In this document: in pieces, positions 9,148 to 30,944 of the stretch | Position numbering within the stretch: position 1 is the stretch's first letter | Layout of the letters: each line of letters begins with the position of its first letter | Source: Pyrodictium delaneyi | GTDB taxonomy: Archaea > Thermoproteota > Thermoprotei_A > Sulfolobales > Pyrodictiaceae | NCBI RefSeq assembly: GCF_001412615.1 | Contig: NZ_CP013011.1 | Coordinates: 690,001-722,000, forward strand | Direction: 5' to 3' | Length of the DNA stretch: 32,000 nucleotides | The notes under the pieces: model-generated | Databases searched by the model: none | What the model saw: the letters and a program-made list of their open reading frames with translations, nothing else | What the model was told of the DNA's origin: nothing | Position numbers and translations under genes: made by a program

Positions 9148-9154
9148 TAGGAGT

Positions 9155-14225: not shown

Positions 14226-15566
14226 TCATTGGTTTGAGGGGCGGGGATAGGCCCCGCCCCTCGCCCCCGGTCTTGGGGGTGTTACCCCTACCCCGAGGCG
14301 GTGGGGGTGTGTGAGGGCCTCGGGGCTCGGGGTTATGGTTCGCTTTGTGCCCTTGGCTAGTATGTTGTAGGCTGCAGCCATGTCGGCGTTCATTGCTAGC
14401 CTGCGGTGGGGGCAGATGTAGAGGCCTCTGTGCACACGTGCACGGGGGTGTACGGCGCCGCATAGGGGGCAGCGCTGGCTAGTGTATGCCTCGTCTACCT
14501 CCACAACCTCTATCCCGTACTCCCATGCTACCTCCTTTAGGCGGCGGAGGAGGAGCCCGTAGGTCCAGACATGGACCCGCTCAAAGTTCAGCTTCCCGTT
14601 GCCGTCCCCACGCCGGGCTATGCCCCTCGGGTAGCCCACGTATATCCTCGCGACGCCGCGGCTGTAGAGCTCCTCCATTGCACGTCTCACGGCAGCGTCT
14701 ATGTAGGCTCTTATCCTAGCCCTCCACCGGCGGTACATTAGGCGTAGCCTGCGGCTCGTACTCCCCGCGCCATCGGCTCTGTCGAGAACACTCTTGTACC
14801 TGGCTATGCGGCGCTGCCAGTAGAAGCTCTCAGCCTTCAGGGGACGCCCATTCACGAGGAAGCCTTCGCCGTTCTCAACGTAGACCGCCAAGAGGTTGTC
14901 TACTCCAAGGTCTACCCCCGCCTCCAGGCTCCCGCGGGGCTTCATGGGTACGCGGACCCAGCCCCTTCCATGTATCAGCTTCTCCTCCACAGTGTACGAT
15001 ATCGCTATGTACCAGCGCCTCCTATCGTGGTCGTACCATATCTCGGCGCCCCTTTGCCTGCCCCGGACATGGATTAACCCGCGGTACCTGACACGCACCA
15101 CGCCGGCAACGCCTAGGCGCCTTATCTCGACAATACCTCTCTCCGTGTCTACGCGGTACTGGTCCTGCCTGAGGGCCAGCCATAGCCTCCTACGCCGCCG
15201 GCTCCTCTTACGGTAGCCCGGCGGGCTGGCCTTCGCTATGTGTGGTGGCAGCCTCCCCTTCTTCTTCAATGCTAGGAGCCGGAAGAAGCTTCTCCACGCG
15301 GTATCGTTCTTAGCTATAATTGCCTGTGTGGTGGCGCTGCCCAAGAGCCTGTTGTACATGTAGTAGAACTCCTTGTAGGTTTCGTAGAGTTTTTGCTGGG
15401 TCAGCTTTCCCTCGAAGAAGAGGCGTCTACGGCGGTAGTTGAGCTCGTTCCAGAGCTTCGACGCTAGCTCGCATACTAGCCTTAGCTTCTCCTCTTCCTC
15501 CGGCCCGGGCTCCAGGCGGAGCACCACTGTCCTAATGACGCCGTTTGCCCGCCTCCCCCACGGCAC
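14226..15566 (-). CDS. tnpB: TnpB (OrfB) RNA-guided nuclease of IS200/IS605 family
   Basis: 446 aa. C-terminus TSQRCPLCGAVHPRARVHRGLYICPHRRLAMNADMAAAYNI is the Zn-ribbon/RuvC-III signature. It begins 1 nt after the tnpA stop. Confidence 0.93.
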   Translation of the reverse strand: MPWGRRANGVIRTVVLRLEPGPEEEEKLRLVCELASKLWNELNYRRRRLFFEGKLTQQKLYETYKEFYYMYNRLLGSATTQAIIAKNDTAWRSFFRLLALKKKGRLPPHIAKASPPGYRKRSRRRRRLWLALRQDQYRVDTERGIVEIRRLGVAGVVRVRYRGLIHVRGRQRGAEIWYDHDRRRWYIAISYTVEEKLIHGRGWVRVPMKPRGSLEAGVDLGVDNLLAVYVENGEGFLVNGRPLKAESFYWQRRIARYKSVLDRADGAGSTSRRLRLMYRRWRARIRAYIDAAVRRAMEELYSRGVARIYVGYPRGIARRGDGNGKLNFERVHVWTYGLLLRRLKEVAWEYGIEVVEVDEAYTSQRCPLCGAVHPRARVHRGLYICPHRRLAMNADMAAAYNILAKGTKRTITPSPEALTHPHRLGVGVTPPRPGARGGAYPRPSNQ

Positions 15567-15567
15567 T

Positions 15568-15981
15568 CTAGCAGCACCTCTTCTGCCCCGCTATGTAGCG
15601 CCCCACTATGGCGGCGTCGTGGCCGACGCTTGCCACGTAGTAGCCTGGCGCCCACAGGCTGCCGCGTGAAGCCCCGCTCTCCAGCCAGGGCAGCGCCCTG
15701 AGCAGCATGTAGCCCGTATAGCCCTTCAACACGTTGGCTACGCGGGAGGGGCTGGGCCGAGGAGGGCACTGCACAAGGACATGCACATGGTCTATGGGGG
15801 CGGCCCACTCTACTAGCCTGCACCCAGCCCTCTCAGCCGCCTCACGGAGCAGCCTACCCAGCATCCTCTCCACAGGCTTCGAGAGGATACACCGCCGGTA
15901 CTTCGGCACCCAGACGTAGTGGTATAGGAGCACACTCACGCTATGCCGGCGCCTCACCGGCTCCGGGCCGCCCCAGCCCAA
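15568..15981 (-). CDS. tnpA: IS200-type Y1 (HUH) transposase TnpA
   Basis: 137 aa. Carries LLYHYVWVPKYRR, the HUH motif DHVHVLV, and the C-terminal GYYVASVG tyrosine region. Confidence 0.93.
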   Translation of the reverse strand: MGWGGPEPVRRRHSVSVLLYHYVWVPKYRRCILSKPVERMLGRLLREAAERAGCRLVEWAAPIDHVHVLVQCPPRPSPSRVANVLKGYTGYMLLRALPWLESGASRGSLWAPGYYVASVGHDAAIVGRYIAGQKRCC

Positions 15982-16395: not shown

Positions 16396-16899
16396 ATGCC
16401 ACTCCTAGGCCTAAGGAGGAGAAAGGAGGAGCCTCAGGCTACAGACGACGACATAGCCATAGAGCTTACCGAGGAGCAACTAAAGAGAGCAGAGCCGCTG
16501 CCTCACTTTGCCGACGACTCGTGGGGGCCTGGCGACTACATAACGGGCTGGGTCACACTAAATGCCGAGATATGGAAACCCAGGAGAAATCCTGCTGCGG
16601 TTGAGGGGCGCCCGCTTAAAAAGCCTATAGAGATTAACGGGTACCCCTACGGGGCGGCTATCTTCATGGATGATGGAAGAATATTCCTTGTGGATATAAT
16701 CACGTTCAATATAATGGCTGAGGCTGACGGCTCTCGGCCATTGAATGATATAATTGCGAAGCTCGTTGCCGAGATAGCGGAAGAGGACGAGTGGGTAAGG
16801 GAAAAGCTAGAGAAAAACGATAAGGAGTTCCTTACAGGCTTCTACTCCATGCTCTATCGCTCCACTGCTATGTTGAAGGAACGTGGCCTCCTCTACTAG
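16396..16899 (+). CDS. PqqD/RRE-like domain protein, copy 2 (intact)
   Basis: 167 aa. IFLVDIITFNIMAEADGSRPLNDIIAKLVAEIAEEDEW...MLKERGLLY matches the PqqD-family layout, including the terminal ..RGLL. Confidence 0.75.
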   Translation: MPLLGLRRRKEEPQATDDDIAIELTEEQLKRAEPLPHFADDSWGPGDYITGWVTLNAEIWKPRRNPAAVEGRPLKKPIEINGYPYGAAIFMDDGRIFLVDIITFNIMAEADGSRPLNDIIAKLVAEIAEEDEWVREKLEKNDKEFLTGFYSMLYRSTAMLKERGLLY

Positions 16900-19081
16900 C
16901 CCACATTTTCCTGCCGAGCCTTGTACTAGTAAGGTGCCTTGATAGCGCCTTCATCCTCTCCCTAGCACTTCTTGCAAGCTCTACACTCTTCGACTTAACG
17001 AACCTGCCAGTTCTTATCCCAACCTCAGCTGTTATTTCTCCCGCTTTTTCGCCTATGCGTGCTGCCCTGTAGGCTCGTGTCTCTATATCGTATTTGTCTA
17101 GGACGCGTGGCTTGAAGCGCTCTGGGATGCGTATGCCCAGCTCTTTTTCGGCGATGCCTATGAACTCTCTCGCGAAGCCCCTCGCCCTGTTCTCTAGGAG
17201 CGAGGCCGCCTTGACGCCTATCTCGGCGGCCTTTGCGGCTACCGCCGCGGCCCTGGGGTGTCTTAGCCTGTGCTCCTCTATGGCCGGTCTGGCCTCCTCG
17301 ACGGTTTCTGCTGCTCTTGCTGGGGCTGGTGTTATGGGCTTCGGTTGCAGCCATTTCTTTCTCAGCTGGAGTGCCATGCCCTGTGTCGTTGCTAGCTGTC
17401 TTGCCGCCTCGGTGTGCCTGTAGGCTGCCGCTGCTGGTGCTGCTGCGGCGCCGGCGGCGGGGAGTGTTGTGGCTGCTACCGGGGCTGCCGCTATGGCTCC
17501 TGTGGCTGCTCCTGCTGCCGCCCCGGCGGCTGCCGCGGGGGCGGCTCTGGCTGCGCGGATTGCCCTGAGTGCTCCGAGGCCGGGGAGCCCGCCTAGGCCT
17601 AGCTGGTTGAGTATGATGTGGCCTCCGAGGGTTATGGCTATGGGGAGCGCGTAGGCCACGGCTATGTTGACTATCTCGCGGCCCGCGTAGAGTAGGCCCT
17701 GGCTGGCTAGGAAGAGCATGCCGGCGGCCACGAGGCCGAGGACTGCTATCTTCTCTAGCAGGAGGGCGGCGCTCCGGGCCATGCCGCGTAGCGGCGGGAA
17801 GAGCCACGCGGCCGCCCAGACGGGGGCGAGGCCTATTATCGCGCCTGCTGCGAGCCACTTGAGAACGCCTATCACCACCACGGCTATTATCGCTATGAGC
17901 GCTGTCCACGCGACGGCGGCGGCGCCGGCGTTCCAGCCCAGCGCGACCCCGAGCAGCACGTGGCCCAGCAGGAAGCTGTACGCCACGTTAGCCTGGCTGA
18001 TGTTGGCTATGCTCAGCGCAAGCGCGTTGTATAGCTTCGCCAGCGGCGCGTAGAGGGCCAGCCCCGCCACGGCGACTATCAGGCTGAGCACCATGTCGCT
18101 AGCGTACTCGTAGAGGTCCAGCCCCTTGGGGTCCCGCCAGACCCTCCAGAGCGCCCCGGCTATCGCGGCTAGGGGCCAGAGGAGGGGCATCCACACCGAG
18201 GCCCTGGCCCAGAGCTGCTCCATGCCCGGCATGTCGGGCGTTGGGAGCGCTAGCAGCCAGTAGAAGGCCTCCCCGGGGCTGAACCCCGACACCTCCATGA
18301 CCTTCGCGGTCGCCTCTACCGCGCCGCCGAACACGGGCCCCATGACCTTCAGCAGCCTAGCCAGCACCTCCTTGATGCTGTTAGCGATGAAGCCGCCGGC
18401 GTCCTGCCTCTCCAGCGCGTCGCCCGCCTCGATGAAGAGGTTCGCCACACGGTAGCCCAGCTTCTCCACCGTCAGCGTCATCGAGGCGAGGAGCCTGGCT
18501 CCCGCCGGGATGCTCCCACAGTCCCCAGTCCACGCGTACATCTCCACATTGAAGCTCCTCTCCATAGCCGTGCCGAGCGCGTAGTTGTGCACGAGCTTCA
18601 GGCTCCCGCCGGGCGCCAGCGTAGCCGTGCTCTCGCTTCCGTCACCCCACCGGACCCCGACGCATACACTGGTATTGGTCAGCCATGTGTGGACAAACCA
18701 AGCCTCGACAGGGAACTCCTCAGCTACCCTGCTAGGAGGTGGCACAGCAACCACGAGGCTCGCCGTGGCGGCCTGTACCTTCAGGTCCTTGGTGAGCCAC
18801 TTCAGCGTCGCCGGCCCAGCCGCGGCTATGAACAGTGCCACGAGGCCTGCTACTAAGAGCCTCTTCGCCTCCTCCGGGTTATTGGCCATGAACTTGATGG
18901 CAGCGGCCACGAAGAGGAACACCGAGGTCCACATACCCGCGGCGGCGACCCAGCCGTAGGCGTCTCCCACTGCTCCCAGCCCCTGGGTGCTCCACCCTCT
19001 AGCCCCGGCCCGGGAGACGCCCGGGGAAGCAGCGGCCACCCAGCACGCGATGCACACAGCTACACTGCCGCCGTGAATCAC
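16868..19081 (-). CDS. VirB6/TrbL/CedA-like polytopic membrane protein with poly-Ala linker and basic C-terminal domain
   Basis: 737 aa with GTG start. From the N-terminus: a two-helix hydrophobic hairpin, a soluble beta-rich segment, at least 6 further TM helices, an (A/G/P)-rich tract (nt about 17400-17600) and a charged tail. The family call rests on topology and context only. Confidence 0.75.
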   Translation of the reverse strand: MIHGGSVAVCIACWVAAASPGVSRAGARGWSTQGLGAVGDAYGWVAAAGMWTSVFLFVAAAIKFMANNPEEAKRLLVAGLVALFIAAAGPATLKWLTKDLKVQAATASLVVAVPPPSRVAEEFPVEAWFVHTWLTNTSVCVGVRWGDGSESTATLAPGGSLKLVHNYALGTAMERSFNVEMYAWTGDCGSIPAGARLLASMTLTVEKLGYRVANLFIEAGDALERQDAGGFIANSIKEVLARLLKVMGPVFGGAVEATAKVMEVSGFSPGEAFYWLLALPTPDMPGMEQLWARASVWMPLLWPLAAIAGALWRVWRDPKGLDLYEYASDMVLSLIVAVAGLALYAPLAKLYNALALSIANISQANVAYSFLLGHVLLGVALGWNAGAAAVAWTALIAIIAVVVIGVLKWLAAGAIIGLAPVWAAAWLFPPLRGMARSAALLLEKIAVLGLVAAGMLFLASQGLLYAGREIVNIAVAYALPIAITLGGHIILNQLGLGGLPGLGALRAIRAARAAPAAAAGAAAGAATGAIAAAPVAATTLPAAGAAAAPAAAAYRHTEAARQLATTQGMALQLRKKWLQPKPITPAPARAAETVEEARPAIEEHRLRHPRAAAVAAKAAEIGVKAASLLENRARGFAREFIGIAEKELGIRIPERFKPRVLDKYDIETRAYRAARIGEKAGEITAEVGIRTGRFVKSKSVELARSARERMKALSRHLTSTRLGRKMWASRGGHVPST

Positions 19082-19100
19082 TCAAGCCTATCAGTGATTC
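19075..19100. promoter_or_regulatory. perfect 8-bp inverted repeat over the start of the VirB6-like gene
   Basis: GAATCACT (19075-19082) - N10 - AGTGATTC (19093-19100). The GTG start of the minus-strand gene is at 19079-19081. Confidence 0.55.
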
Positions 19101-19172
19101 ATTGAGGTAATGTAGAGTCTATGGCTCCCGGCCCGATACTGTAGAGATAGAACGCGTGTCCACTGTATACAC

Positions 19173-20046: not shown

Positions 20047-21507
20047 CTATACCCGTACCCACTTGCGGCCCGTCATTGTGCCCAGCCCCGCCAGCGCCAC
20101 TAGCAGCACTAGTGCCGGCGCCAGCCACCGGCCCTGCCTCGCGGGCTCTACGTGGAGCCTTACCTCGATGCTGTTGCCTGCTTGGTCTACAGCTATGACG
20201 GTGTAGTTTCCTGGGGGCAGCGAGGCGGCGTCGAGCCTGTAGACCCTGCCCCGGGGCTCTAGCTCCCTGTAGACCCCGCCGCCCCTCTCTATGACTATCC
20301 TCGCCAGGCTACCGCACTCCCCGGGATCCTCGAAGACCAGTGTGTCGCCGCTCCGGCTCCACGTCGGCGCACGGTGGTCCTCTACCCGCTCTACCACCGT
20401 GGGCTCCTCCGCCGGCTCCCAGTGGATTATGCGGCACTCATCGTCCCGGACCAGGAGCCAACCGTACGGGTATACTATACTAACATTGTACTCTAGCCTC
20501 TCCCTGTAGGCCTTCCCGCTGGTAGCATCATCCACCGTGGCCTCGATTATTACTCGTAGCTCGATACTCCTCGAGGGCGGCGTGGGAGGCGCCAGGAGGA
20601 ATGGTAGCTCCAGTGCCGGCTTGTCGAGGCTAGGCGGCCAGGTGTAGTTGTCCGCGCTCCACGCTGTGAGCAGCTGCCAGCCCCTCCACACCTCGACGCG
20701 GGGCATGTAGACCAGGAGCTGGCCCATGAGGGGCTCCAGGAGCTCCTCGCCATGCTCCTCCAGGCCTGTGGCTATGTTCCATACTCTCAGGGTGCAGTTG
20801 CCCGGGAGCCCCGGGCTAGGCCACTCGCAGTAGACGTCCACGGGCAGGTAGGTCTTGTTGAGCACACGGGGGATGATGGTCACGGTCGCGGCGTCCGCAA
20901 GCGTGATGGTGGTCGTCTTGGTCCTTGTCTTGGTGAGCGTCTCATAGCCGGCGCACTTTTTCTTAGTAGTAGTCGTCGTGGTGTTGACTACCGTAGTGGT
21001 TGTTGTGTTGCCTATCGTGGTGGTCACCGTGGTCGTGGTCGTTATCGTCTTTGTCTCCGTCTTGGTCCTGGTGCAGATGCTCGTGGTGTAGCGCTGCCAC
21101 GCAATGTAGCTGCACCTGCAGCCGTAGCCCAGGACGTGCCCTCTCAGGCTCGCCGCCTCGCCGGCGTGCCACACAGCGCTGCACGCCACGCCCTCGCTCT
21201 CATTAAGCGTGATAGCTGCGGGGCAGTTGCTGCCGAGCAGCTCTAGGTCGCCGCGGAGGCTGCAGGTGCACGTCAGCAAGGCCGGGGGGCTGGGGCCCCA
21301 GCGGGGGCTCCACGGTGGCGGACTAGTGTCAGCCAAGGTGTTCGAGACGTGGTAGTAGGCGGTGGCGTTCATGCAGCGGTACATGCTGTCCTCGAGCCAC
21401 GGGTCGAGGGCCGTACCGGCATCGCCCGGCCGGGCGTGGACCACCGCAGCGAGGAAGGCTACCACGAGGGCAGCGCCGGCGTAGAGGGCTAGCCTCGAGG
21501 AGTCCAT
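20047..21507 (-). CDS. secreted, C-terminally membrane-anchored Cys- and Thr-rich glycoprotein (putative surface adhesin)
   Basis: 486 aa. It has an N-terminal signal peptide (LALYAGAALVVAFLAAVVHA), many N-x-S/T sequons, the Thr tract TKTETKTITTTTTVTTTIGNTTTTTVVNTTTTTT and the C-terminal TM WLAPALVLLVALAGLG + RKWVRV. Its start lies 1 nt after the VirB4-like stop. Confidence 0.85.
   Translation of the reverse strand: MDSSRLALYAGAALVVAFLAAVVHARPGDAGTALDPWLEDSMYRCMNATAYYHVSNTLADTSPPPWSPRWGPSPPALLTCTCSLRGDLELLGSNCPAAITLNESEGVACSAVWHAGEAASLRGHVLGYGCRCSYIAWQRYTTSICTRTKTETKTITTTTTVTTTIGNTTTTTVVNTTTTTTKKKCAGYETLTKTRTKTTTITLADAATVTIIPRVLNKTYLPVDVYCEWPSPGLPGNCTLRVWNIATGLEEHGEELLEPLMGQLLVYMPRVEVWRGWQLLTAWSADNYTWPPSLDKPALELPFLLAPPTPPSRSIELRVIIEATVDDATSGKAYRERLEYNVSIVYPYGWLLVRDDECRIIHWEPAEEPTVVERVEDHRAPTWSRSGDTLVFEDPGECGSLARIVIERGGGVYRELEPRGRVYRLDAASLPPGNYTVIAVDQAGNSIEVRLHVEPARQGRWLAPALVLLVALAGLGTMTGRKWVRV
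20897..21072 (-). repeat. low-complexity Thr-codon (ACN) tract inside the glycoprotein gene
   Basis: The plus strand reads as runs of GGT/GTG/GTC/GTT, encoding a mucin-like Thr/Lys linker. Confidence 0.7.
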
Positions 21508-21508: not shown

Positions 21509-23410
21509 CTAGACCTCTACCTCCTCGAGGCCTGCTGGCTCGGGGGCGGTGTGCGCTGGTTTCTCGCTGAACGGTGTTGTAGAGAAGGCTTCGAGCTCGT
21601 CCTTGCTTATCATTACCTCTACTCTTAGCCTGTAGCCGCCGGCGCGGAGGAGCGCGTAGCCTCTTGGAGCGTCTAGGAGGAAGCTCTGCTCGTTCTCGCT
21701 CAGCGGTATAACCTTGACAAGCTCGTCGAGGGCTGCCGCGTCGAGCCCTAGCAGTATCTGCACCTGGGCCTGCGTCACCACAGTCTTCCCATGGGGGTTC
21801 TCGAGGACGTCCCCGGGCTTCTGGCTGATGAACACGAAGTGTATCCCGCGCTTCCTGCCACGCCTAGCAATGTCAGCCATAAGCGACGCCAGGCTCTCGT
21901 ACTGCATGAAGAGCCATCCCTCGTCCACCACTAGGATGCTCCGCCTGCCTAGAAGCGCCGAGAGAAGCGACGAAACCAGGCTCGCCACCAGGGCCTTTGT
22001 ATCCTTGTCCTGTATCCCGCTTAGGTCGAATACCGCGCCGTGCCGCAGCCCCCGGGGCGGCTCGCCCTCGTATATCCACGCGTCGGCGCCAACCACGTTC
22101 TCCATGTAGTTCTTCAGCTTCTGCGAGGCCTTGTCGTACACCTCGAAGATGCTAGTAGAGGAGCGCACTAGCCTGGTAAGCTCGCCCTCCAGCTCCCGGG
22201 GTATACCGTAGACGTCACGGAGAATCGCTACAGCCTGCTTGGTGGTGATTAGCTCGCTCTGGGCGAGCCGGACCGGGTCCAGCCCCGCGCCCTTCCCATG
22301 TAGCCTGACTACAGCGGCGCCGGGTGCTAGGCGGTCTACGATCCTCGCATACTCCCCCTCGGGGTCCACTATGTAGGGCGGGTACGGGTAGCGCTCCCTT
22401 AGCCGAGAGAGGTAGACCTTGGTGAGCATGCTCTTGCCTTTGCCGCTCTGCCCTATAATGACCCAGTTGTAGTTATCGTAGGCGAACGGGTTCACAATAA
22501 CCGGCGTGCCAGTGTCAACGTTCCTACCTAGTAAGACACCGTCCGGATGAACTAGCTCCTCGCTAACAAAGGGGTAGAAAGCTGCCAAGCTGAACGTGTC
22601 CGTCACGAAGCGTGGCACGAGCCAGTGCCTCGACAACAGCGTGAATGACCTGCGTAGCTCGTAGAGGGGTGCTTGTAGGCTCCCGGGGGCGTAGAGCTCT
22701 ATCCTCCTAGAGGCCGCCAGGCTCTCAAGGTCATAGCATTTCTCGACTAGCTCGTGTTCACTCCTGGCACGGACAACTAGTATCGCAGAGAACCGGAAGA
22801 GGGCCGCAGCCTCAGCCTGCAGCTGCTCTAATGCCCGTAGCTTTGCTATCCTCCTCTGCAGCTCGGCGTTCGAGGGATCATTCGCAAGGAGTGCCTCGAG
22901 CCGCCTTATGAGGCCTGGCAGCTTCTTGCTGGCCTCCCGAGGCTCAATACGGTTAAAGAACAAGTGGACCTCTGACGCAATACCGTAGAACTCTCCTACC
23001 ACGGCTTCAGGCAGGAACGCTGGCAGCCCTGTTACCACGTAGCTCCTCGCCAGCGAACCGTCCTCGAGGATAACAGCAGGCATAGAGACAGTACGGGTCT
23101 TCGCTTTCCCCTCCTCATCCTCGCTATAGACTGGTACCTCTCCACGCGCTATAGTCCGCCCCCTAGGCCTCGGCCTCGGTGGAGGCTCAGCGGGCTCTGC
23201 CTGGAACCCGAAGCTAGAGGGGTCTACGGGGCTCTTCGCGAAGAGGCTGAACCGGTAGAACCTGAAGCCCCACGCCTCCTCCTCTAGGAGGAAGAACGAT
23301 ACAAGGAGCCACGGGCTGGCGTTTAGCAGGGACATCCACCGGGCTAGGAGCTTAGCTCTCTCCCGCTCGCCTAGGGCGGCGAATGGCTCGGGTATGATAT
23401 GGTACCACAA
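21509..23410 (-). CDS. VirB4/TrbE/CedB-like type IV secretion ATPase
   Basis: 633 aa. Walker A GQSGKGKS (22430-22453), Walker B ILVVDEGW (21914-21937), then HFVFISQKP. Size and motif spacing resemble the TrbE homologues of crenarchaeal conjugative plasmids. Confidence 0.92.
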   Translation of the reverse strand: MWYHIIPEPFAALGERERAKLLARWMSLLNASPWLLVSFFLLEEEAWGFRFYRFSLFAKSPVDPSSFGFQAEPAEPPPRPRPRGRTIARGEVPVYSEDEEGKAKTRTVSMPAVILEDGSLARSYVVTGLPAFLPEAVVGEFYGIASEVHLFFNRIEPREASKKLPGLIRRLEALLANDPSNAELQRRIAKLRALEQLQAEAAALFRFSAILVVRARSEHELVEKCYDLESLAASRRIELYAPGSLQAPLYELRRSFTLLSRHWLVPRFVTDTFSLAAFYPFVSEELVHPDGVLLGRNVDTGTPVIVNPFAYDNYNWVIIGQSGKGKSMLTKVYLSRLRERYPYPPYIVDPEGEYARIVDRLAPGAAVVRLHGKGAGLDPVRLAQSELITTKQAVAILRDVYGIPRELEGELTRLVRSSTSIFEVYDKASQKLKNYMENVVGADAWIYEGEPPRGLRHGAVFDLSGIQDKDTKALVASLVSSLLSALLGRRSILVVDEGWLFMQYESLASLMADIARRGRKRGIHFVFISQKPGDVLENPHGKTVVTQAQVQILLGLDAAALDELVKVIPLSENEQSFLLDAPRGYALLRAGGYRLRVEVMISKDELEAFSTTPFSEKPAHTAPEPAGLEEVEV

Positions 23411-23444
23411 CCGGCCTCCCCGCCCTCTAGCCGGGGCGGGGAGA

Positions 23445-24080
23445 CTAGCGCTCCACGAGGACGCGATACCTCGCTAGGAGGGCCGGGGGCTCGGCGCTAT
23501 ACACCTCTACCGTGTGCTCGCCGGGCTCCTCGAACTCCACCCTCGAGGACCACTGCCCGGCGACCCGGAGCCTGCGCACCTCGACACCGTCTACAACTAT
23601 GCGGAGCACAGTCTCCCGCTCAGCAGAGCCGCTAAGAGTCATAGCCGCGTAGCCGGTCTCGCGCATCCTAAGCGTGACACGCTTCTCGACCACCCGGGGC
23701 TCCTCCCGCTCCTCTGCCCCGGCTTGCTCCTCCCCGCTCCGCCCCCTCCTCTTCCTGCCAGCCTTCTGCGTCTTCTGGCCCAGGAGTGTGTAGAGCAGCA
23801 CCGCCTCTGGACGCACAGGCCTGTCTACGAGAAAGAAGTACACGAAGGGGAGGAGGGGTAGGAGCCCCAGGAGCTTGAAGACTCCGGCCTCGAGCTCGAG
23901 GCCGGGCAGATAGACCCTAGGCTCCGAGGGCATCTTGAGTGCGTCCACGAGGGCCAGGGCTATGATTACAGCTAGGTAGGCTAGGCGGCGGAGGGTGAGA
24001 GCAAAGGAGCCGAAGTAGACGAGAGGCTCGTCAAGAAAACCCCGCTCGGGCTCGGCTACCACGTCGACCACTATTCTCAC
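23445..24080 (-). CDS. membrane protein in VirB3 position, with C-terminal beta-rich domain
   Basis: The GTG at 24078-24080 overlaps the upstream TGA (GTGA). Two TM segments: LAYLAVIIALALV and FKLLGLLPLLPFVYFFLV. The longest ORF extends to 24224 but overlaps the upstream gene by 148 nt. Confidence 0.7.
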   Translation of the reverse strand: MRIVVDVVAEPERGFLDEPLVYFGSFALTLRRLAYLAVIIALALVDALKMPSEPRVYLPGLELEAGVFKLLGLLPLLPFVYFFLVDRPVRPEAVLLYTLLGQKTQKAGRKRRGRSGEEQAGAEEREEPRVVEKRVTLRMRETGYAAMTLSGSAERETVLRIVVDGVEVRRLRVAGQWSSRVEFEEPGEHTVEVYSAEPPALLARYRVLVER

Positions 24081-24406
24081 CCGAAGAGGAAGTAGGCTAT
24101 CGTCAGCGCGAAAGTTATTATGAAGCCGCCTATCAGCACGTTCCGCAGCTTCTGCGGAGCCTCCTTGTCGCCCTGGTAGAACTGTATCCCCGTCCATATC
24201 AGCCCGCCGAGGAACAGCATCCATGCTATGAAAATGATGAATCCTAGGAAGCGGCTGAAGAAGCCCTTGACCTCCGGCGGAGCATCCGGCGTTATGTTCA
24301 GCTCTGGCGGCTTAACCACTGTAGCTGTCTCCGCGTAGGCCACCAAAGGGAACTGCCCCACGAGCAGCACGAGAGCGGCTACCGCGCATAGCTCCACACG
24401 CCTCAC
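24077..24406 (-). CDS. VirB2/TrbC/CedA1-like conjugative pilin candidate
   Basis: 109 aa with GTG start. A Sec-type signal peptide ends AYA/ETA. The mature protein has two hydrophobic helices, FLGFIIFIAWMLFLGGLIWTGI and VLIGGFIITFALTIAYFLF, joined by the short polar loop QFYQGDKEAPQKLRN. Confidence 0.65.
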   Translation of the reverse strand: MRRVELCAVAALVLLVGQFPLVAYAETATVVKPPELNITPDAPPEVKGFFSRFLGFIIFIAWMLFLGGLIWTGIQFYQGDKEAPQKLRNVLIGGFIITFALTIAYFLFG

Positions 24407-24450: not shown

Positions 24451-24864
24451 CTAGACCTGGAATGAGAATTCATCCTCCTTGGTCTTTCCGCCTTCCTCGT
24501 AGACCACCTTTATGACGTGCTTGCCGCCGGGCAGCAGCTCGTCGAGGTCTATGGTTTTCTTGTGCTCGTCGCCGGGGCCGAGGCTCTTCGGGAGCCCTAG
24601 GTCGCTCGTTATGTTCCTCGTGCCGTCGATGTAGACCTGTAGGACCTTTATCGCCGAGCCACCGCTGTTACGCAGCGCTATGACCAGGTGTGTCTCGTCG
24701 TCCAGCGTTATCGGCTTAACCGTTACATCAAGGCTGCCGTGCGTCATCGAGGATACTTGGCCCTGAGCCCAGCTATAGATGCCGTAGGCCGCTACGATGC
24801 TGACAATCGTCAGGGCTATCGCGGCTACCACGTAGCTTACCCCGCGCAGCTTCGAGCGCCCCAT
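24451..24864 (-). CDS. archaeal type IV pilin (class III signal peptide)
   Basis: The ATG at 24864 gives MGRSKLRG/VSYVVAAIALTIVSIVAAYGIY followed by a beta-rich domain. The 46-codon upstream extension of the longest ORF looks non-coding. Confidence 0.8.
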   Translation of the reverse strand: MGRSKLRGVSYVVAAIALTIVSIVAAYGIYSWAQGQVSSMTHGSLDVTVKPITLDDETHLVIALRNSGGSAIKVLQVYIDGTRNITSDLGLPKSLGPGDEHKKTIDLDELLPGGKHVIKVVYEEGGKTKEDEFSFQV

Positions 24865-25058
24865 AGCCCCACCCCGTTCTCTCCGCCCTACAAGCTGGCA
24901 AGGGAGACTGCCATGACGTGGAGGCTCTGCTAGCCGGGGCGAGACCGGGAGAAAGAGCAGCCACGGGGCCATGGCTGAGGAGAGTAATGCATGGAGAGGC
25001 ATGGAGGGGCGTAGATGCGTGGGGGTTAAAGGGGGCCGTGTAGAAGAATCAAGTCGTT

Positions 25059-25095: not shown

Positions 25096-25905
25096 TCATG
25101 GAGTGTCTCCCAGGAGCCGCCACCGGCCCTCCGCCACCCGCGCTACGTAGCCCATGTCTGCTAGCTTCCCTAGCAGCTTGCCAGCAGAGTTCGGCGTCAG
25201 AGCCATTAGCTCTGCGAAGTCGTCTGTAGAGAACTCTCTATCCCCGAAGACTCTCCTCATGCTGCTGAGGAGCGCGTGCACGTTTATCTTGACCCGTGCG
25301 GATATGTAGTGCTCGCCCACGCTCCCAGCCCTCCACTCGTTAGAGCGTGCCGGGAGAAGGAGAGCAGCCACCTCGCCACGCCACGTGTCGCCGACGTAGC
25401 ACGTCTCTATGCCGCGGCAGAGCGGCGTATAGCCATCGAGGGCCACGACTATGGAGGCGTACGCCTTGACCCTGCCAGCGTGGACGCCCAACAGCTTGTA
25501 GGCGTAGCCGCCGCGTAGGAGCTCGCGGTGGGGTATGCCTAGCCTCTCCGCCACAAGCCTTACGGCTCGGTAGAAGCTAGCCCTCGAGGACCCTGCTAGG
25601 CTCCAAGCCTCCTCAGGCTTCATCCTCTCCCGCCGCTGCCGGGCAGCCTCGACAGTATCTATCCAGAATATCGTGGCTGCCGCTAGCGCCCTGGGGTCGC
25701 GGCCGCGGCCTGGGCCCACCAGCTGGGCTAGGAGCCTGGCGAGACGGGCAGCTTCGAGCGCGTTGTATCCCTGGCTCCTGGCTAGCCTGTCGACGTGCTG
25801 AAGGTACTCGAGAGCCCCGGGCATCTCCGGTATCGGTGGTGGAGGAAGACGTCGCACTAGCACCTCCAAGACACTTCTCCCGAGGGCCATCTCCGAACAG
25901 GTCAT
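25096..25905 (-). CDS. putative transcription factor: TFB-cyclin-like segment + C-terminal winged helix
   Basis: 269 aa. GRGRDPRALAAATIFWIDTV...SRASFYRAVRLVAERLGI resembles a TFB/TFIIB cyclin repeat. C-terminus FSTDDFAELMALTPNSAGKLLGKLADMGYVARVAEGRW is wHTH-like. This is a tentative call. Confidence 0.6.
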   Translation of the reverse strand: MTCSEMALGRSVLEVLVRRLPPPPIPEMPGALEYLQHVDRLARSQGYNALEAARLARLLAQLVGPGRGRDPRALAAATIFWIDTVEAARQRRERMKPEEAWSLAGSSRASFYRAVRLVAERLGIPHRELLRGGYAYKLLGVHAGRVKAYASIVVALDGYTPLCRGIETCYVGDTWRGEVAALLLPARSNEWRAGSVGEHYISARVKINVHALLSSMRRVFGDREFSTDDFAELMALTPNSAGKLLGKLADMGYVARVAEGRWRLLGDTP

Positions 25906-25967: not shown

Positions 25968-28010
25968 CTAGCGGGGGAGGGGCAGCGGGGCCATAGCAGC
26001 CAGTGCTGCAAGCAGCACGGCCAACAGCGCGTAGAGGGTGTTGCGCAGTGTCTGGTCGCTGGCCTTGGCCGCGAGCAGCCCCATAGCTAGCCCCGCTAGC
26101 CCGGCGAGGGCTAGGCTCCACTGGTAGGCTACGTCGAAGGCCGCGAGGACCTCCCGGGGCAGCGCCATGGGGCCCTTGGAGAGCACAGCCGTCTCCAGGT
26201 AGCGGCGGGCTATCGGCGCCAGGAAGCGCAGAGAGGCCACGGCGCCAGCGGGCGTCAGCACCGCCATGAGCTGCAGCATCCTCAGCCTCTCGCGGGCCTC
26301 CCTCCATGCCTGCAAGTGCATCTCTACGAGCCTTACAAGCCTCTCCAAGGCCTCCGGCGACGCGGCGCCATACCTTGACATGAGGTGTAGCGTCGAGAGC
26401 ACGTAGCGGAGGAGCCACGACTGGGCCTCGACGCGGCCACGGGCTGCTGAGCGCAGCCTGAGCGCCAGCACACCGCCCACGTGCTCGGCAGCCAGCTCCA
26501 GCGCCCTAGGGACCGGGTGCCCCATCTTCACGTACTCTACCACAATCCTCAGAGCGTCTGCCAGCCTAGCCTCCTCGGCCCTCTTCACGTTGTACTGTGT
26601 GAGCCACATGGCGCCGTAGGCGCCGGCGGCGAGCGCTAGGCTCGCAAACACCACGCCAGCGCCGGGCTCGAGGAAGCCTAGGAATGCCATGAGTGGCGGG
26701 ATGCTCGCAGCTATGGCTGCCGCAGCCACGCCAGCGGCGTCCCGGTACTTCTCGCGGAGCCGAGGCTGCACTGCGTTCAGCATGAGGTAGAATGCTGTGG
26801 CTAGCAGCGGGAGGCCAGCAGTCATCGCGGAGAGCATCGCCACTACAGCGTGCATGTTCAAGACCAAGGCGAAGGCGGCGAACAAACCGACGCCGAGGAA
26901 CACGACAACGAGCGCCATAACGGCGTTTGCGCGCTCCGCGTACTCCACCAGCCTGACGCGCAGAGCCTCCATCGCCCTCCAGACAGCGTCGCCGAGGTAG
27001 GCTGCCACGTCCCCACCACTGCTCTTCACAGCGTCCACGAACCTGTAGAAGTCCCTCAACACCTTGCTAGGCTGCATGGCAGCTACGAGGCCTAGTCCGC
27101 GGCGGGCATAGACCCCGTCGAGCCATGTGCCGGGAAAGAGCTCCCTGTGGCGCGCCGCCTCTATCAGCGCAGCCTCGGGCTCGGCGCCCCCGCCCGAGAC
27201 CATGAGCCACATCCAGAACGCCACGTAGGGGTGCTCCTCCTCCGCGAGCCTGGCTCTCTCGGCTAGCTTCGCCCTGGCGTAGGACTTTATCCCGAGAACC
27301 GTTAGCAGCGGCAGAGGGGCTGCGGCTACGAGTATCCACGGCGAGAAGAGCAGCGCCAGGGGTACCAGTGCCAGGACAGCCACAGCGGCCAGCAGTATAC
27401 TACTAGATACCAGGTATACTGCCTCACGCCGGGTGAAGCCAGCGCCGGATAGCCTTAGGTCCTCGCTGACACGCAGCTTCTGGTCGAGCCGCTCAGCCAG
27501 CCTATCCATGGCCGGAAAGGTGCTCCGGGCAACCACGTACCACGGCGGCCGTCTCTTACCTACCCTCACTACGGGGTGGTAGAGAGACCGGCCTAAGAGC
27601 CATACACCGGCGGCGAGGGCCCCGGCGCCCGGCAGCAGGCCGCTCTCGACAGGCAGCATGCCCAGCGCTGTGGAGGCTATGAGCACCGTGGCCTCGGCTA
27701 TGACTAGCACGGCAGCGATGAATGTGTAGGGGTTGCTGAGACGTATCCTCCAGAGCCTGTAGGGCGCGTGGCGGCGGCGCTCCTCCATGACAGTTATGAG
27801 TCTCCATAGTGCCTCGCTGAGGAGCCGCCCGGTCAGCCTGACGTAAAGCCATAGTGCTATAGCCAGCCCAGCCAGCAGCGAGAGAGCCACAACAGCGAGA
27901 AGGATGCCGCGCGTGGGGACCTGTGGGCGGAGGGCGAGCCAGAGGGCGAACCCTAGGGCTGTGAGGCTCACGACGGCGTACGCCAGCTCCTCGGCTCGGC
28001 CCCGCTTCAC
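25968..28010 (-). CDS. polytopic pilus-assembly platform protein (TadC/FlaJ/UpsF-like)
   Basis: The GTG at 28008-28010 overlaps the ATPase TGA. It encodes 680 aa with many TM helices and cytoplasmic helical segments, immediately downstream of the secretion ATPase. The family call rests on position and topology. Confidence 0.8.
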   Translation of the reverse strand: MKRGRAEELAYAVVSLTALGFALWLALRPQVPTRGILLAVVALSLLAGLAIALWLYVRLTGRLLSEALWRLITVMEERRRHAPYRLWRIRLSNPYTFIAAVLVIAEATVLIASTALGMLPVESGLLPGAGALAAGVWLLGRSLYHPVVRVGKRRPPWYVVARSTFPAMDRLAERLDQKLRVSEDLRLSGAGFTRREAVYLVSSSILLAAVAVLALVPLALLFSPWILVAAAPLPLLTVLGIKSYARAKLAERARLAEEEHPYVAFWMWLMVSGGGAEPEAALIEAARHRELFPGTWLDGVYARRGLGLVAAMQPSKVLRDFYRFVDAVKSSGGDVAAYLGDAVWRAMEALRVRLVEYAERANAVMALVVVFLGVGLFAAFALVLNMHAVVAMLSAMTAGLPLLATAFYLMLNAVQPRLREKYRDAAGVAAAAIAASIPPLMAFLGFLEPGAGVVFASLALAAGAYGAMWLTQYNVKRAEEARLADALRIVVEYVKMGHPVPRALELAAEHVGGVLALRLRSAARGRVEAQSWLLRYVLSTLHLMSRYGAASPEALERLVRLVEMHLQAWREARERLRMLQLMAVLTPAGAVASLRFLAPIARRYLETAVLSKGPMALPREVLAAFDVAYQWSLALAGLAGLAMGLLAAKASDQTLRNTLYALLAVLLAALAAMAPLPLPR

Positions 28011-29242
28011 CCAGCCTCCCCGCTCTCCTGGCCGGACGGGGAGACGCAGCGCCGCGGCTCGCCGCGCTCCTCCCACGTATCGGTGTCGCTGCTCCACTCC
28101 CATAGCAGCCTGAACTCTCCCTCCCAGCGCTCCCAGAGCCCGAGCATCCTCCGGGCCCTGCCTCCCTCGGGCAGCTCGACGATGCCGAGCAGTGCCACGG
28201 CGTGGAGGTTGTCTAGCAGCTCCTTGGGGACTCCTAGCAGCGTGAGCCTGGTTGTTAGCTCCTCGATGTTGCGGGCGTGGAATGTGGCGGCGCTGGCGAC
28301 CCCTAGGGAGGCGGCGTGGAAGAGGTACACTACCTCGCGGAACCGTGCCTCCGCGACCGCGACCACATGCGGCCGGAGCCGGAGGGCGTGCTTCAGCAGG
28401 TGCTCCATGGTCACGGTTATCCTCTCGGGCTCGGCTAGGCTCCTTGGCTCCCTTGTGTGGAAGCTGCTCCAGTTACGCCTCCGGAGCCGGACCTCCGGGG
28501 TCTCCTCGACAACCACCACCTTCCAGTCGGGGTCCGGCAGGCTGTCGAGCAGCGCGGCCATGAGCGTGGTCTTCCCCGCGCCCGGCGGCCCTATCACGAA
28601 CACCATGCCGCCGCCGAGGAGTAGGCAGCGCAGGTACTCGGCGGCCTCCCTGGGGAGGAGCCGGAGCTCCACGAGCCGGTCGAGGCTGTAGGGCTGGCTG
28701 GGGAACAGCCTGACAGTCAGGCTAGGCCCCGTGGAGGCCACCAGCCCCAGGGCCGCGGCTACCCGGGCCCGCCCGTAGTCGAACTCCGCGATGGGGTAGG
28801 CCGGGTTGATGCTGGTCCCCGCGCGTACGCTAAGCTCCCGTATAACGTCCTCCAGCGCCTCCCTCTCCAGGACCACGCTGGACTCCAGGTAGACGCCGGG
28901 CACCTCCCTGTGGACCACGTACACGGGCCCAGGCCGCGGCACCGACACCTCCTCGAGGCCCTCGTCCAGCACCATGGGGTAGAGGGGGCCCCAGCCGCTC
29001 ATGAGGCGCCGGACATGGTACTCTATCGCCGTGGCCTCGCGCTGGTAGACCTCCGCGTAGCCCAAGTGATCGGCGGCCGTCGCGATATTGTCGCTCTCGG
29101 GCTCCAGGCCCCGGAGCGATAGCCACTCCTCGATGGCCTTGACGGCCTCAGCAGCCTCTGGTGACAGCGCCGGCTCCTCGACGACGTAGCTCCGGGTCCT
29201 TGGGTCCACCATGTACCTGACAGGCCCTATCGTGTACTCCAC
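28007..29242 (-). CDS. type II/IV secretion-family ATPase (PilB/FlaI/VirB11/UpsE-like)
   Basis: 411 aa. Walker A GPPGAGKTT (28565-28591). Other motifs: VVVVEETPE, RLRPHVVAVAE, ATFHA. Confidence 0.92.
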   Translation of the reverse strand: MEYTIGPVRYMVDPRTRSYVVEEPALSPEAAEAVKAIEEWLSLRGLEPESDNIATAADHLGYAEVYQREATAIEYHVRRLMSGWGPLYPMVLDEGLEEVSVPRPGPVYVVHREVPGVYLESSVVLEREALEDVIRELSVRAGTSINPAYPIAEFDYGRARVAAALGLVASTGPSLTVRLFPSQPYSLDRLVELRLLPREAAEYLRCLLLGGGMVFVIGPPGAGKTTLMAALLDSLPDPDWKVVVVEETPEVRLRRRNWSSFHTREPRSLAEPERITVTMEHLLKHALRLRPHVVAVAEARFREVVYLFHAASLGVASAATFHARNIEELTTRLTLLGVPKELLDNLHAVALLGIVELPEGGRARRMLGLWERWEGEFRLLWEWSSDTDTWEERGEPRRCVSPSGQESGEAG

Positions 29243-29246: not shown

Positions 29247-29579
29247 TCACCCGCATACGGGCGGGGATACGACGTAGTACTGGCCGGGCGGGATAGTGCC
29301 GTTAAAGACGGGGACCGTCTCGTTCCAACCGTCGTTATCTATATCCGCAAAGACCCAGACCTTCAGCCCCATCTCCCGCAGCTCATCCACGTCTATGCTG
29401 GTGAAGGCGTAGCAGACGGCATGGGTGCTGTTGACGCGTATGCTCTGGAACGCGTCCACATCACCGGTATGCTGGAGCAGCTCAACCCTCGGGGCAAGAT
29501 AGCTGACCAGGAGAGCACCGAAGACGGAGGCTATGACGGCGAGGGCCACCGCGCCCACTATCTCCGAGACCCCGCGCAC
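29247..29579 (-). CDS. small pilin-like protein with class III signal peptide
   Basis: The GTG at 29579 gives (M)RG/VSEIVGAVALAVIASVFGALLV. An alternative GTG lies at 29591. The gene ends 4 nt before the ATPase start. Confidence 0.65.
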   Translation of the reverse strand: MRGVSEIVGAVALAVIASVFGALLVSYLAPRVELLQHTGDVDAFQSIRVNSTHAVCYAFTSIDVDELREMGLKVWVFADIDNDGWNETVPVFNGTIPPGQYYVVSPPVCG

Positions 29580-29609
29580 TCCTCCGGGCACCCCGCTAGG
29601 AGAGCAGGC

Positions 29610-29633
29610 GCCGGGAGACGCGCGTCTCCCGGC
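29610..29633. promoter_or_regulatory. perfect 24-bp palindrome in the divergent intergenic region
   Basis: GCCGGGAGACGC|GCGTCTCCCGGC, located between the minus-strand pilin-like start (29579) and the plus-strand start (29655/29664). Confidence 0.7.
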
Positions 29634-29654
29634 CCGCCCCTCTAGGACGGAGGG

Positions 29655-30944
29655 GTGGGAGAGGTGCGCGGACAGGGCACGGTCGTTGCAGCCGCGATAG
29701 TCCTCCCCATCCTCATAGCAGCCACGGCGGCCGCTATACTGAAGTGGCAGCAGATGGCGAGCGTCGAGGAGCTGGTGCAGACCAGCAGGAGCCGCGTCGC
29801 CCACGCAGCGGAGATGCTCAACGACACAGCGCTACATGCTAGGGATAGTGCCCTCGTGCTCGTGCAGACCAGCGACGGCCAGCTCTTGCTGAGGCAAGTG
29901 GACCCGGGCGAGACGCTAGCCCTGCCACAAGGTAGCCGGGGCTGGATCCTCGTGGGGCCCGCAGCCCAGCCCCTACAATCACTCATAAACGCCACGAGGG
30001 TCTACGAGGCGCTGGGCGAGATTGACAGCACAGTAGAGCAGCTCAACAACACCCTAAGCCAGCTCAGCTCCACTATATCTGCGGTAGAGCTGATAGCTAA
30101 TGGCTACCTGGATCCACTCTTCGTGGAGTATAGCGACGTGCTGGATCCGAACGCGTACCGTGGCTACGTGTACGTGGGCGGGTACACACTGGGGCCTCCC
30201 ATGGTGCAGCTTAGGAGCCCATATGTCTGCATAGACTATGGTAGAAGGACTGTAGAGATGAACCTGATGACAATAAGTCTGCCCGATGGGGGTAGCATCA
30301 GCGTCGTCGGCACGAAGAGTAGCGAGGGCAGCGACAGGGTTTACGTGGAGTGGTGGGTGACTTGGCCTAACGGGACCAGCGTCCTCGTAGCAAACATTAC
30401 GGGCAGTGCGTGGCGTAGCTTCAGCTTCACCGTCGGGAGCTACACGGTCACTGTCAGCGGCTACTTCTCCTGGACGAGATATACGTGGTGCGGAGAGTAC
30501 ACGTATATCCCGTGGCTCTACAGGGTCACAATCCGGATCATTGGCGAGAGAAGCGCTACACTATATATATCCACGACGGACGTGGAATGGCCCGTTGACT
30601 GGTTCAGGTGGACCGGGAGCTACAGATACGACACAATAAACGAGCTCGCTGCGAACCAGGTACTCCTAGTAGACCTCCAGACGCTCTACTGCCGCCAAGT
30701 ACAGAACTATGGCGCGAGCTGCGTCCTCGTGAGCAGCCAGCTCGATAAGCCCGTACTAACGCCGGGTAGCGCCAGCAGCATAGTGTATAGTGTCTCGTCA
30801 GAGGCGACAACAAGCTGGACGACATGCAGGTGCATAACCGTGACCAACCCCGGGCCATCGAGATACATAACGGTAAACTTCGACGGCGTGTGGATAACAC
30901 TACCACCAAGGACATTCACAGGCTCGCTCTTCGAGAACCCCTAG
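29655..30944 (+). CDS. large extracellular protein with pilin-type N-terminus (putative minor pilin/tip adhesin)
   Basis: 429 aa. The GTG at 29655, or the GTG at 29664 giving (M)RGQGTVVAAAIVLPILIAATAAAIL. The remainder is aromatic- and beta-rich with N-x-S/T sequons. Confidence 0.8.
   Translation: MGEVRGQGTVVAAAIVLPILIAATAAAILKWQQMASVEELVQTSRSRVAHAAEMLNDTALHARDSALVLVQTSDGQLLLRQVDPGETLALPQGSRGWILVGPAAQPLQSLINATRVYEALGEIDSTVEQLNNTLSQLSSTISAVELIANGYLDPLFVEYSDVLDPNAYRGYVYVGGYTLGPPMVQLRSPYVCIDYGRRTVEMNLMTISLPDGGSISVVGTKSSEGSDRVYVEWWVTWPNGTSVLVANITGSAWRSFSFTVGSYTVTVSGYFSWTRYTWCGEYTYIPWLYRVTIRIIGERSATLYISTTDVEWPVDWFRWTGSYRYDTINELAANQVLLVDLQTLYCRQVQNYGASCVLVSSQLDKPVLTPGSASSIVYSVSSEATTSWTTCRCITVTNPGPSRYITVNFDGVWITLPPRTFTGSLFENP

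Follow-up and report, generated by a model that had tools for sequence, protein, structure and literature searches.

Archaeal conjugation has been known since pNOB8 (1995), and conjugation by the Thermococcus plasmid pT33-3 has reportedly been shown genetically in recent work. The latter plasmid is described as self-transmissible in a 2025 review (PMC12857230). No archaeal conjugative plasmid encodes a recognisable pilus protein (Beltran et al., 2023; PMC9905601); VirB4 and VirD4 are the only parts recognisable in pNOB8-type plasmids and pT33-3 (December 2025 review; PMC12857230), and traG and trbE are the only discernible transfer genes according to a 2023 Sulfolobus study (PMC9899855). Reviews up to December 2025 list VirB4/VirD4 homologues and know of no pilus protein (PMC9905601, PMC12857230, PMC9899855). 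The present analysis concerns a 32-kb stretch of the Pyrodictium delaneyi chromosome (NZ_CP013011.1, positions 690,001 to 722,000), which is called the window and numbered from its first letter. In it, a gene for a protein of 109 amino acids (aa), 100% identical to Pyrde_0727, is followed by genes for a 211-aa membrane protein (p211) and a VirB4-family ATPase. The 109-aa gene probably encodes the VirB2-type pilin of a chromosomal, conjugation-type type IV secretion system (T4SS) of the plasmid-module lineage.

VirB2-type pilins of archaeal T4SSs are already known. CedA1 and TedC have been solved by cryo-electron microscopy, are VirB2 homologues and form pili (Beltran et al., 2023; PMC9905601), as an earlier note on this DNA had correctly stated. 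TedC is cut by signal peptidase I at AVA↓QA, and CedA1 is unprocessed, having no signal peptide (PMC9905601). The 109-aa protein resembles TedC (Pyrobaculum calidifontis Pcal_0765; PMC9905601) in being archaeal and of about 100 aa, in its Sec-type signal peptide with a signal peptidase I site of the form A-x-A before Q or E, and in the flexible N-terminal segment that precedes a two-helix hairpin; both genes lie beside VirB6-like and near VirB4-like genes. Ted, a chromosomal system with a proposed role in importing host DNA, has no reported VirD4-like coupling protein, whereas the window has a VirD4/TraG homologue and a plasmid-type module. With the Ced system found in Sulfolobales and Aeropyrum the locus shares a two-helix archaeal pilin of T4SS-derived DNA transfer, a VirB6-like partner with a pilin-like N-terminus and an association with Ups pili, with which Ced works; in Ced, however, the pilin lacks a signal peptide, and CedB and CedD replace VirB4. 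Bacterial VirB2/TrbC (PF04956) and T4SS_pilin (PF18895) proteins likewise have a signal peptide, two helices, a short polar loop and a gene upstream of virB4. The C-terminal processing or cyclisation of TrbC/VirB2 finds no evident counterpart in the window protein, whose host has an archaeal membrane and a surface layer (S-layer) and no VirB7, VirB9 and VirB10 outer-membrane core.

By sequence comparison, the window module shows gene-by-gene homology with the transfer modules that archaeal conjugative plasmids carry and is probably of the same lineage as those of pNOB8, pKEF9, pRT2 and pT33-3, with which it shares VirB4, a large polytopic protein and the small pilin-like protein. In tblastn searches the window VirB4, across 97% of its length, shares about 32% identity with the TrbE-like proteins of pNOB8, pKEF9, pHVE14 (NC_006425), pING1 (NC_004852) and Thermococcus nautili pT33-3 (E about 1e-92 for pNOB8, pKEF9 and pT33-3). 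TraG of pRT2, pNOB8 and pKEF9, the plasmids which this comparison covered, shares 31-36% identity with the coupling protein across about 660-900 aa (E 1e-110 to 1e-122), the pT33-3 coupling protein lying outside the stretch compared. The 737-aa polytopic protein is about 27% identical to large membrane proteins of pNOB8, pKEF9, pRT2 and pT33-3 (E 1e-4 to 1e-16). The window has, in this way, TrbE/VirB4, TraG/VirD4 and large polytopic protein homologues as in a pNOB8/pT33-3-type module.

The same plasmids each carry a homologue of the 109-aa protein. A hidden Markov model (HMM) of 18 non-plasmid pilin homologues, searched against the 5182 open reading frames (ORFs) of the loci compared, matched exactly one small signal-peptide protein per plasmid in all four (Table 1), as well as the N-terminus of the pRT2 VirB6-like protein; the next unrelated ORF had an E-value of 0.18, setting aside the N-terminus of the window 737-aa protein (E 0.003). 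T4SS_pilin is the sole Pfam match of the pNOB8 homologue (E 7e-4). In pT33-3 the pilin homologue is followed by a 157-aa two-helix protein with the same N-terminal motif as p211 and then by VirB4, which is the window arrangement, whereas in the Sulfolobus plasmids the pilin-like gene is near VirB6-like or TraG genes and not directly upstream of VirB4. The window copy differs from the plasmids in being chromosomal, with no integrase or replication genes seen in the window, in the added immunoglobulin (Ig)-like domain of its middle protein and in the attached Ups-like type IV pilus operon.

Table 1. Positions of the genes and other features discussed; window features are numbered from the first letter of the window, plasmid features by plasmid position (aa, amino acids; nt, nucleotides; ORF, open reading frame).
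Feature	Position	Strand	Remarks
VirD4/TraG-like type IV coupling protein, 1216 aa	4265-7915	plus	Pfam TrwB_AAD_bind, TraG-D_C, T4SS-DNA_transf; NCBIfam conju_CD1115
Low-GC island	9000-11000
599-aa ORF of the island	9258-11057
Paralogue flanking IS200/IS605	13727-14200
tnpB of IS200/IS605	14226-15566	minus
tnpA of IS200/IS605	15568-15981	minus
Paralogue flanking IS200/IS605	16396-16899
Polytopic membrane protein, 737 aa, proposed VirB6-like channel or platform	16868-19081	minus	hydropathy; homology to plasmid proteins
Thr-rich surface protein, 486 aa (fourth gene)	20047-21507	minus	starts 1 nt after the VirB4 stop
VirB4-family ATPase, 633 aa (gene 3)	21509-23410	minus	TTG start; GGGAGG upstream; 34-nt gap after gene 2
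Two-helix membrane protein p211, 211 aa (gene 2)	23445-24080	minus	GTG start overlaps the TGA of gene 1 as GTGA
Prepilin candidate, 109 aa (gene 1)	24077-24406	minus	GTG start; GGAGGTG Shine-Dalgarno-like motif 8-9 nt upstream
UpsA-like prepilin	24451-24864 of ORF 24451-25002	minus	real start probably M47, MGRSKLRG↓VS
Winged-helix regulator	25096-25905	minus	NCBIfam/Pfam
UpsF-like membrane platform	25968-28103	minus	NCBIfam/Pfam
FlaI/UpsE-like ATPase	28007-29242	minus	NCBIfam/Pfam
ORF with class-III-signal-like N-terminus	29247-29804	minus
ORF with class-III-signal-like N-terminus	29655-30944	plus
pRT2 pilin homologue	18798-19124		E 1.3e-11
pT33-3 pilin homologue	5934-6326		E 5.4e-10
pKEF9 pilin homologue	5553-5873		E 3.9e-8
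pNOB8 pilin homologue	29626-29946		E 1.7e-7

The 109-aa protein starts with the n-region MRR and a hydrophobic stretch at residues 4-22 that ends in VAYA↓E, by hydropathy. Residues 1-25 would form the signal peptide, with a cleavage site that the sequence suggests and that is conserved in the family alignment. An extended N-terminal segment with the motif P-x-AP-P-E-V-K follows, and then two hydrophobic helices at 53-71 and 90-108 with the linker YQGDKEAPQKLRN. The AlphaFold2 model from the single sequence is a helical hairpin (helices about 44-77 and 83-108; predicted local distance difference test score, pLDDT, 86-90) with an inter-helix loop GDKEAPQ(K). Hydropathy, the model and the conserved A-x-A/Q motif all agree with the cleavable-type signal, two hydrophobic helices and short polar loop that the earlier note had described, and these are traits of the VirB2 superfamily.

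Homologues were sought in a full HMMER scan of 1.84 billion representative proteins, which gave 9, and in an alignment-seeded search, which gave 37; about 40 are archaeal in all. They come from P. delaneyi strain Hulk and from metagenome-assembled genomes (MAGs) assigned to Ignisphaera, Thermosphaera, Sulfolobales and Nitrososphaerota, and have in common a signal peptide with A-x-A/Q at its end, the motif P-x-(A/V)-P, and helices 1 and 2 with the loop G-D-x-E-K/A between them. Homologue P0008 passes the cutoff for TrbC/VirB2 (PF04956; 30.6 against 27.9 bits) and P0039 that for T4SS_pilin (PF18895; 29.5 against 26.6 bits); P0003 of strain Hulk (59% identical) scores 27.7 bits on TrbC and P0010 66 bits on T4SS_pilin. 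Aligned by hhalign to bona fide bacterial PF18895 pilins (77-aa Sulfobacillus proteins, 32.7 bits, and both domains of P0010), the profile of 18 archaeal members reached 93.1% probability (E 3.2e-7) over 61 columns spanning the helix-loop-helix, whereas the controls, which were two other two-helix hairpin families, a reversed profile and 30 column-shuffled profiles, all stayed at or below 1.7%. These profile comparisons place the small-protein family in the VirB2/TrbC/T4SS_pilin superfamily, at family level, and together with gene context they support the pilin identity put forward before. Among bacteria, the nearest relatives that turned up are pilins from monoderm lineages and Patescibacteria. 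For 194-aa Dehalococcoidia proteins encoded upstream of VirB4, hhalign showed no profile similarity to the family.

Two members, P0006 and P0007 (L024, 7360-7962), are of about 200 aa, an Ig/MG2-like domain being inserted between their signal peptide and hairpin; should the pilin polymerise, this insert would decorate the filament surface. The nearest VirB4 matches among bacteria, in a pattern-based scan of genomes, belonged to monoderm lineages (Sulfobacillus, Dehalococcoidia, Bacilli), with L002 and L014 from Sulfobacillus and L003-L011 from Dehalococcoidia. In Sulfobacillus the VirB4 match is preceded, about 1.7 kb upstream, by a bona fide pilin of PF18895 (77 aa), after which come VirB6-like and weakly PrgI-like genes. 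Such a pilin is of note, as classical Gram-positive T4SSs are said to be without VirB2 pilins.

In other archaea the gene context of the window recurs in several loci. In L001, from a Pyrodictiaceae MAG, the genes are for an Ups-like ATPase, an UpsF-like protein, an UpsA-like pilin, a small two-helix protein, a protein with two helices and an Ig domain, VirB4 (29% identical), a Thr/Ser-rich surface protein and a polytopic protein. L022 has the pilin, a p211 homologue and VirB4 (35% identical), and L024/L025 have an Ups-like module, the pilin, a p211 homologue, an opposite-strand 171-aa gene and VirB4 (38-40% identical). In the Ignisphaera locus L026 the pilin gene is upstream of a homologue of the 737-aa membrane protein, with VirB4 about 6.5 kb away, and in L028 and L029 it adjoins a VirD4-like coupling protein gene. 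In more than 10 independent loci the pilin gene is associated with genes for VirB4, VirD4-like or VirB6-like proteins, and it lies within a virB4-containing T4SS cluster in the window, L001, L022, L024/L025 and pT33-3. With a predicted hairpin and archaeal homologues beside VirB4, the proposal of a pilin held on both points at which the earlier note had put it at risk.

The three ORFs, their coordinates and the GTG/TGA overlap were as first described, all on the minus strand. All three genes are real, since the same three-gene order recurs in divergent archaeal loci (L001, L022, L024/L025 with the opposite-strand gene before VirB4, and pT33-3). The GTG start of gene 2 is backed by an alignment in which four homologues begin at the same position; a longer, 259-aa version of this ORF from an ATG would overlap gene 1, and the GTG start is preferred. 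Translational coupling, once proposed for the whole set, applies strictly to genes 1 and 2 because of the gap before gene 3. The operon extends past the three-gene set, as the gene of the 486-aa protein begins right behind the VirB4 stop.

The third gene product, proposed earlier as a VirB4-like ATPase, is VirB4 by its profile and sequence matches. It scores 41.6 bits on Pfam AAA_10 (cutoff 27.5) and 26.5 bits on P-loop_TraG (cutoff 25.8), belongs to the VirB4-like CD1110 family of NCBIfam (E 6e-30), and matches VirB4 4ag5 (E 1.5e-14) and TrwK (E 2e-6) in the PDB. The Walker A motif is GQSGKGKS and the Walker B motif LVVDEGW. Hydropathy predicts no hydrophobic or transmembrane segment in this protein.

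Several results weigh against the pilin reading or parts of it, and they are taken in turn here and in the paragraphs that follow. The window protein itself is sub-threshold in Pfam: T4SS_pilin is its top match with 17.9 bits (E 0.0033; cutoff 26.6), so that its homology to pilins is transitive or at profile level. The same model is also the top, sub-threshold match for P0002, a metagenomic homologue of 88% identity (E 5e-5), and for the L001 protein that holds the equivalent position and is very divergent (E 0.006). VirB2, TraA, CedA1 and TedC pilins are in the PDB. Searches of PDB sequences by phmmer and hmmsearch with the 109-aa protein, its homologues and two family profiles gave no significant pilin (best pilin 7jsv, E 0.26) and returned spurious designed-protein and transporter matches. 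CedA1 and TedC, which these searches should include, were not matched (TedC not at E up to 10); for TedC, the signal peptide and hairpin architecture is the same and sequence similarity was not found. In Foldseek the hairpin model matched no solved pilin of the PDB, giving generic hairpins (e.g. ATP synthase subunit c) with E of at least 2. A bare helical hairpin is not discriminating, and structure comparison is therefore uninformative on pilin identity; of the proposed check against solved structures, the hairpin fold was obtained by prediction and the pilin match was not.

The sub-threshold Pfam score, the generic Foldseek hairpins and the want of a significant match to solved pilin sequences would also be expected of an unrelated two-helix membrane protein that looks like a pilin through its hydrophobic composition. 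Such an explanation is very improbable and largely refuted by the controls: hairpin, reversed and shuffled hhalign comparisons fail where the real one reaches 93%, two family members pass curated Pfam thresholds, and linkage to VirB4, VirD4-like or VirB6-like genes is consistent across the loci compared.

The middle gene had been likened to virB3, which is not borne out beyond position, two helices and inferred topology. VirB3 and VirB8 homologues are stated to be absent in archaea in one recent paper (PMC11868833). p211 has no Pfam or NCBIfam match to VirB3, PrgI or TraL, and its profile found nothing in the PDB. Its four-member N-terminal alignment gave about 1% probability in hhalign against VirB4-upstream Sulfobacillus proteins, a comparison in which both alignments are shallow and the targets weakly PrgI-like (best E 0.12) and unvalidated. 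With no sequence or profile signal in any test and an extra C-terminal Ig-like domain, homology to VirB3 is not supported. Weak profile matches of p211 are to VirB4-adjacent proteins of pRT2 and pT33-3.

p211 is, by analogy, a positional and topological counterpart of VirB3. It has two hydrophobic segments (about 27-47 and 67-85, by hydropathy), and its stop shortly before the VirB4 start places it where a VirB3-type protein would be, an adjacency kept in L001, L022, L024 and pT33-3. Behind the second segment comes a strongly basic tail (KAGRKRRGR), basic in homologues too, and by the positive-inside rule both termini would therefore be cytoplasmic (N-in/C-in). An N-terminal motif is conserved in the alignment with the homologues of L001, L022 and L024. 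Residues from about 131 to 210 form an Ig/FN3-like beta-sandwich in the single-sequence AlphaFold2 model (pLDDT about 90), for which Foldseek found only generic FN3, Ig and CARDB folds. Like VirB3, PrgI and TraL, p211 is encoded immediately upstream of a VirB4, here one without a membrane segment of its own, and has two helices and a presumed N-in/C-in topology; it differs from them in being twice as long, in the beta-sandwich and in the lack of Pfam or profile similarity. The most economical hypothesis is that p211 serves as membrane anchor or partner of VirB4, because this VirB4 has no transmembrane segment and the adjacency is conserved.

The mobility of this copy is a further point on which the locus does not fully agree with the plasmids. 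No integrase, attachment (att) site, tRNA, replication gene or relaxase was found in the window by Pfam, PHROGs, NCBIfam and repeat searches, the att repeat search giving only short chance matches and the starts of the paralogues next to the insertion sequence; mobility is therefore not demonstrated within the 32 kb, where the integrase, att repeats and integration target of an integrative conjugative element are missing. In the earlier description as mobile-element-borne, the type of module stands, by its VirD4-like coupling protein and plasmid homology, and integration within the window does not. It is quite unlikely that the locus is instead a domesticated chromosomal DNA-exchange system of Pyrodictiaceae, a third system like Ced and Ted that imports or exchanges host DNA. 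This would account for the missing integrase, replication gene, att repeat and tRNA target, has precedents in the Ced and Ted systems of related hyperthermophiles (PMC9905601), and would explain the Ups-like pili as a parallel to the Ups/Ced partnership of Sulfolobales. Against it are the VirD4/TraG-like coupling protein, which is closest to conjugative-plasmid TraG (E to 1e-122), and the VirB4, which scores 49 bits on the CedB model, far below its cutoff of 700; a CedB-type ATPase and an unprocessed CedA1-like pilin are both absent from the locus, the window pilin having a signal peptide. A MazE-like gene, an IS200/IS605 copy and a low-GC island in the region also argue against domestication. 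Strain Hulk has counterparts in Pdsh_02025 (pilin) and Pdsh_02035 (VirB4), one gene apart, which share no more than 59-62% identity with the window genes, in genomes reported to be 99.77% similar (PMC5556600); this fits acquired elements and not vertical inheritance. Most likely, the locus is an integrated element related to pNOB8 and pT33-3, possibly a decaying one.

Classical monoderm T4SSs are without pili (PMC12102498), and a VirB2-like protein therefore need not form an extracellular filament. The 109-aa protein might thus be a true member of the superfamily that works as part of a membrane-embedded or stalk channel, cell contact being made by the Ups-like pilus and the Thr-rich protein. 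This is unlikely, though less so than domestication. It agrees with the pilus-free monoderm systems, with the complete Ups-like module that adjoins the T4SS genes here and in L001 and L024, and with the one or two pilin-like hairpins at the N-termini of VirB6-like proteins, which are consistent with an ancestral membrane role (PMC9905601). On the other side, pili are formed by both of the archaeal VirB2-like proteins that have been studied, CedA1 and TedC (PMC9905601), and the Ig-like domain of P0006 and P0007 makes most sense with the N-terminus displayed on a filament surface.

With the 109-aa protein taken as a VirB2-type pilin, a mechanism can be proposed. The prepilin would be inserted by Sec and cut by signal peptidase I after VAYA25, as its sequence and conserved motif suggest, leaving an 84-aa two-helix pilin pooled in the membrane. 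Cytoplasmic VirB4 would be held at the membrane by co-translated p211, a functional analogue of VirB3 whose homology to it is not demonstrated, with its termini and Ig-like domain in the cytoplasm; the positive-inside rule and the conserved adjacency point to this. By analogy to bacterial T4SSs and to Ced and Ted pili, VirB4 would then extract the pilin, with lipid, and load it onto the 737-aa VirB6-like platform, giving a conduit that is short or a longer mating pilus that crosses the S-layer. Its polymer may be a hollow pilus with stoichiometric lipid, a trait of the superfamily. Substrate DNA would be delivered by the VirD4-like coupling protein, and cells drawn together by the Ups-like type IV pilus of the neighbouring genes.

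There is a somewhat better than even chance that archaeal conjugative plasmids and integrated elements generally (pNOB8, pKEF9, pRT2 and pT33-3; elements of Pyrodictium, Ignisphaera and Thermosphaera) have their mating pilin, so far unrecognised, in this family. If so, plasmid conjugation in archaea uses a pilus of the VirB2 type that is processed through Sec and that VirB4 builds with a two-helix partner and a VirB6-like platform, which runs against the current view of VirB4 and VirD4 as the sole recognisable parts, and the family also supplies the ancestor, on mobile elements, of the domesticated Ced and Ted pili. The pilin family is tied to VirB4/VirD4 ATPases in Sulfolobus and Thermococcus plasmids and in loci or contigs assigned to Pyrodictium, Ignisphaera, Thermosphaera and Nitrososphaerota, and offers a plausible origin on mobile elements for the domesticated pili of Ced and Ted. 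New here are the conserved pilin family and its candidate partners, a VirB4 anchor and a VirB6-like protein, in plasmids in which no such parts had been recognised, so that concrete candidate genes are now at hand for conduit, anchor and platform. No report of a plasmid pilin was found in the freely readable full-text literature, and it may have been described elsewhere, e.g. in the original pT33-3 paper. A pNOB8-type plasmid has been manipulated in Sulfolobus, in the traG deletion of pM164 (PMC9899855). The pilin prediction is directly testable, because pNOB8-type plasmids and pT33-3 are already open to genetic manipulation.

Further gene products of the window can be fitted around the three-gene set. 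The 737-aa protein gave no direct VirB6 match in Pfam and no PDB homologue; besides the four plasmids, it has a homologue among the large membrane proteins in L026 of Ignisphaera. Its N-terminal two-helix hairpin (about 43-97) is weakly pilin-like, with 43% probability in hhalign beside the pilin HMM value given above. VirB6-like proteins (in the window; L032, 12605-14386; L026, 2427-4469) have one such pilin-like hairpin at the N-terminus, or two in tandem in pRT2; the motif LAP-x-x-AA-x-WLFPPLRG is common to their polytopic part. The pilin-like N-termini parallel the relation of CedA to CedA1 and of VirB6 to VirB2 noted by Beltran et al. (PMC9905601). The coupling protein is unusually long, with a C-terminal extension of about 550 residues that has a Glu/Ala/Gly-rich low-complexity stretch and a coiled-coil-like region and no assigned domain.

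The fourth gene product, of 486 aa, combines a signal peptide with segments rich in Cys and in Thr (TTTTTVTTT...), a Thr-rich stalk and, at the C-terminus, a membrane anchor, and matches no Pfam or NCBIfam family. In L001, VirB4 is followed by a 575-aa Thr/Ser-rich anchored protein, which is analogous, with no detectable homology. The 486-aa protein is a candidate adhesin or envelope/S-layer-spanning accessory of the same operon.

Directly upstream of the T4SS operon is a complete type IV pilus module of Ups-like type (Table 1). The pairing of type IV pilus and T4SS suggests a combined aggregation and transfer cassette, because it recurs in L001 and L024. Two ORFs beyond the FlaI/UpsE-like gene have class-III-signal-like N-termini; they overlap by about 150 nt on opposite strands and therefore are not both correct as listed. 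The low-GC island has a GC content of 0.44-0.48, against about 0.63 elsewhere, and carries a 599-aa ORF with weak winged-helix (MarR/TrmB) signals and no assigned family. The IS200/IS605 element is flanked by two paralogues of unassigned function, which are 55% identical and whose 5' ends form a 34-nt repeat.

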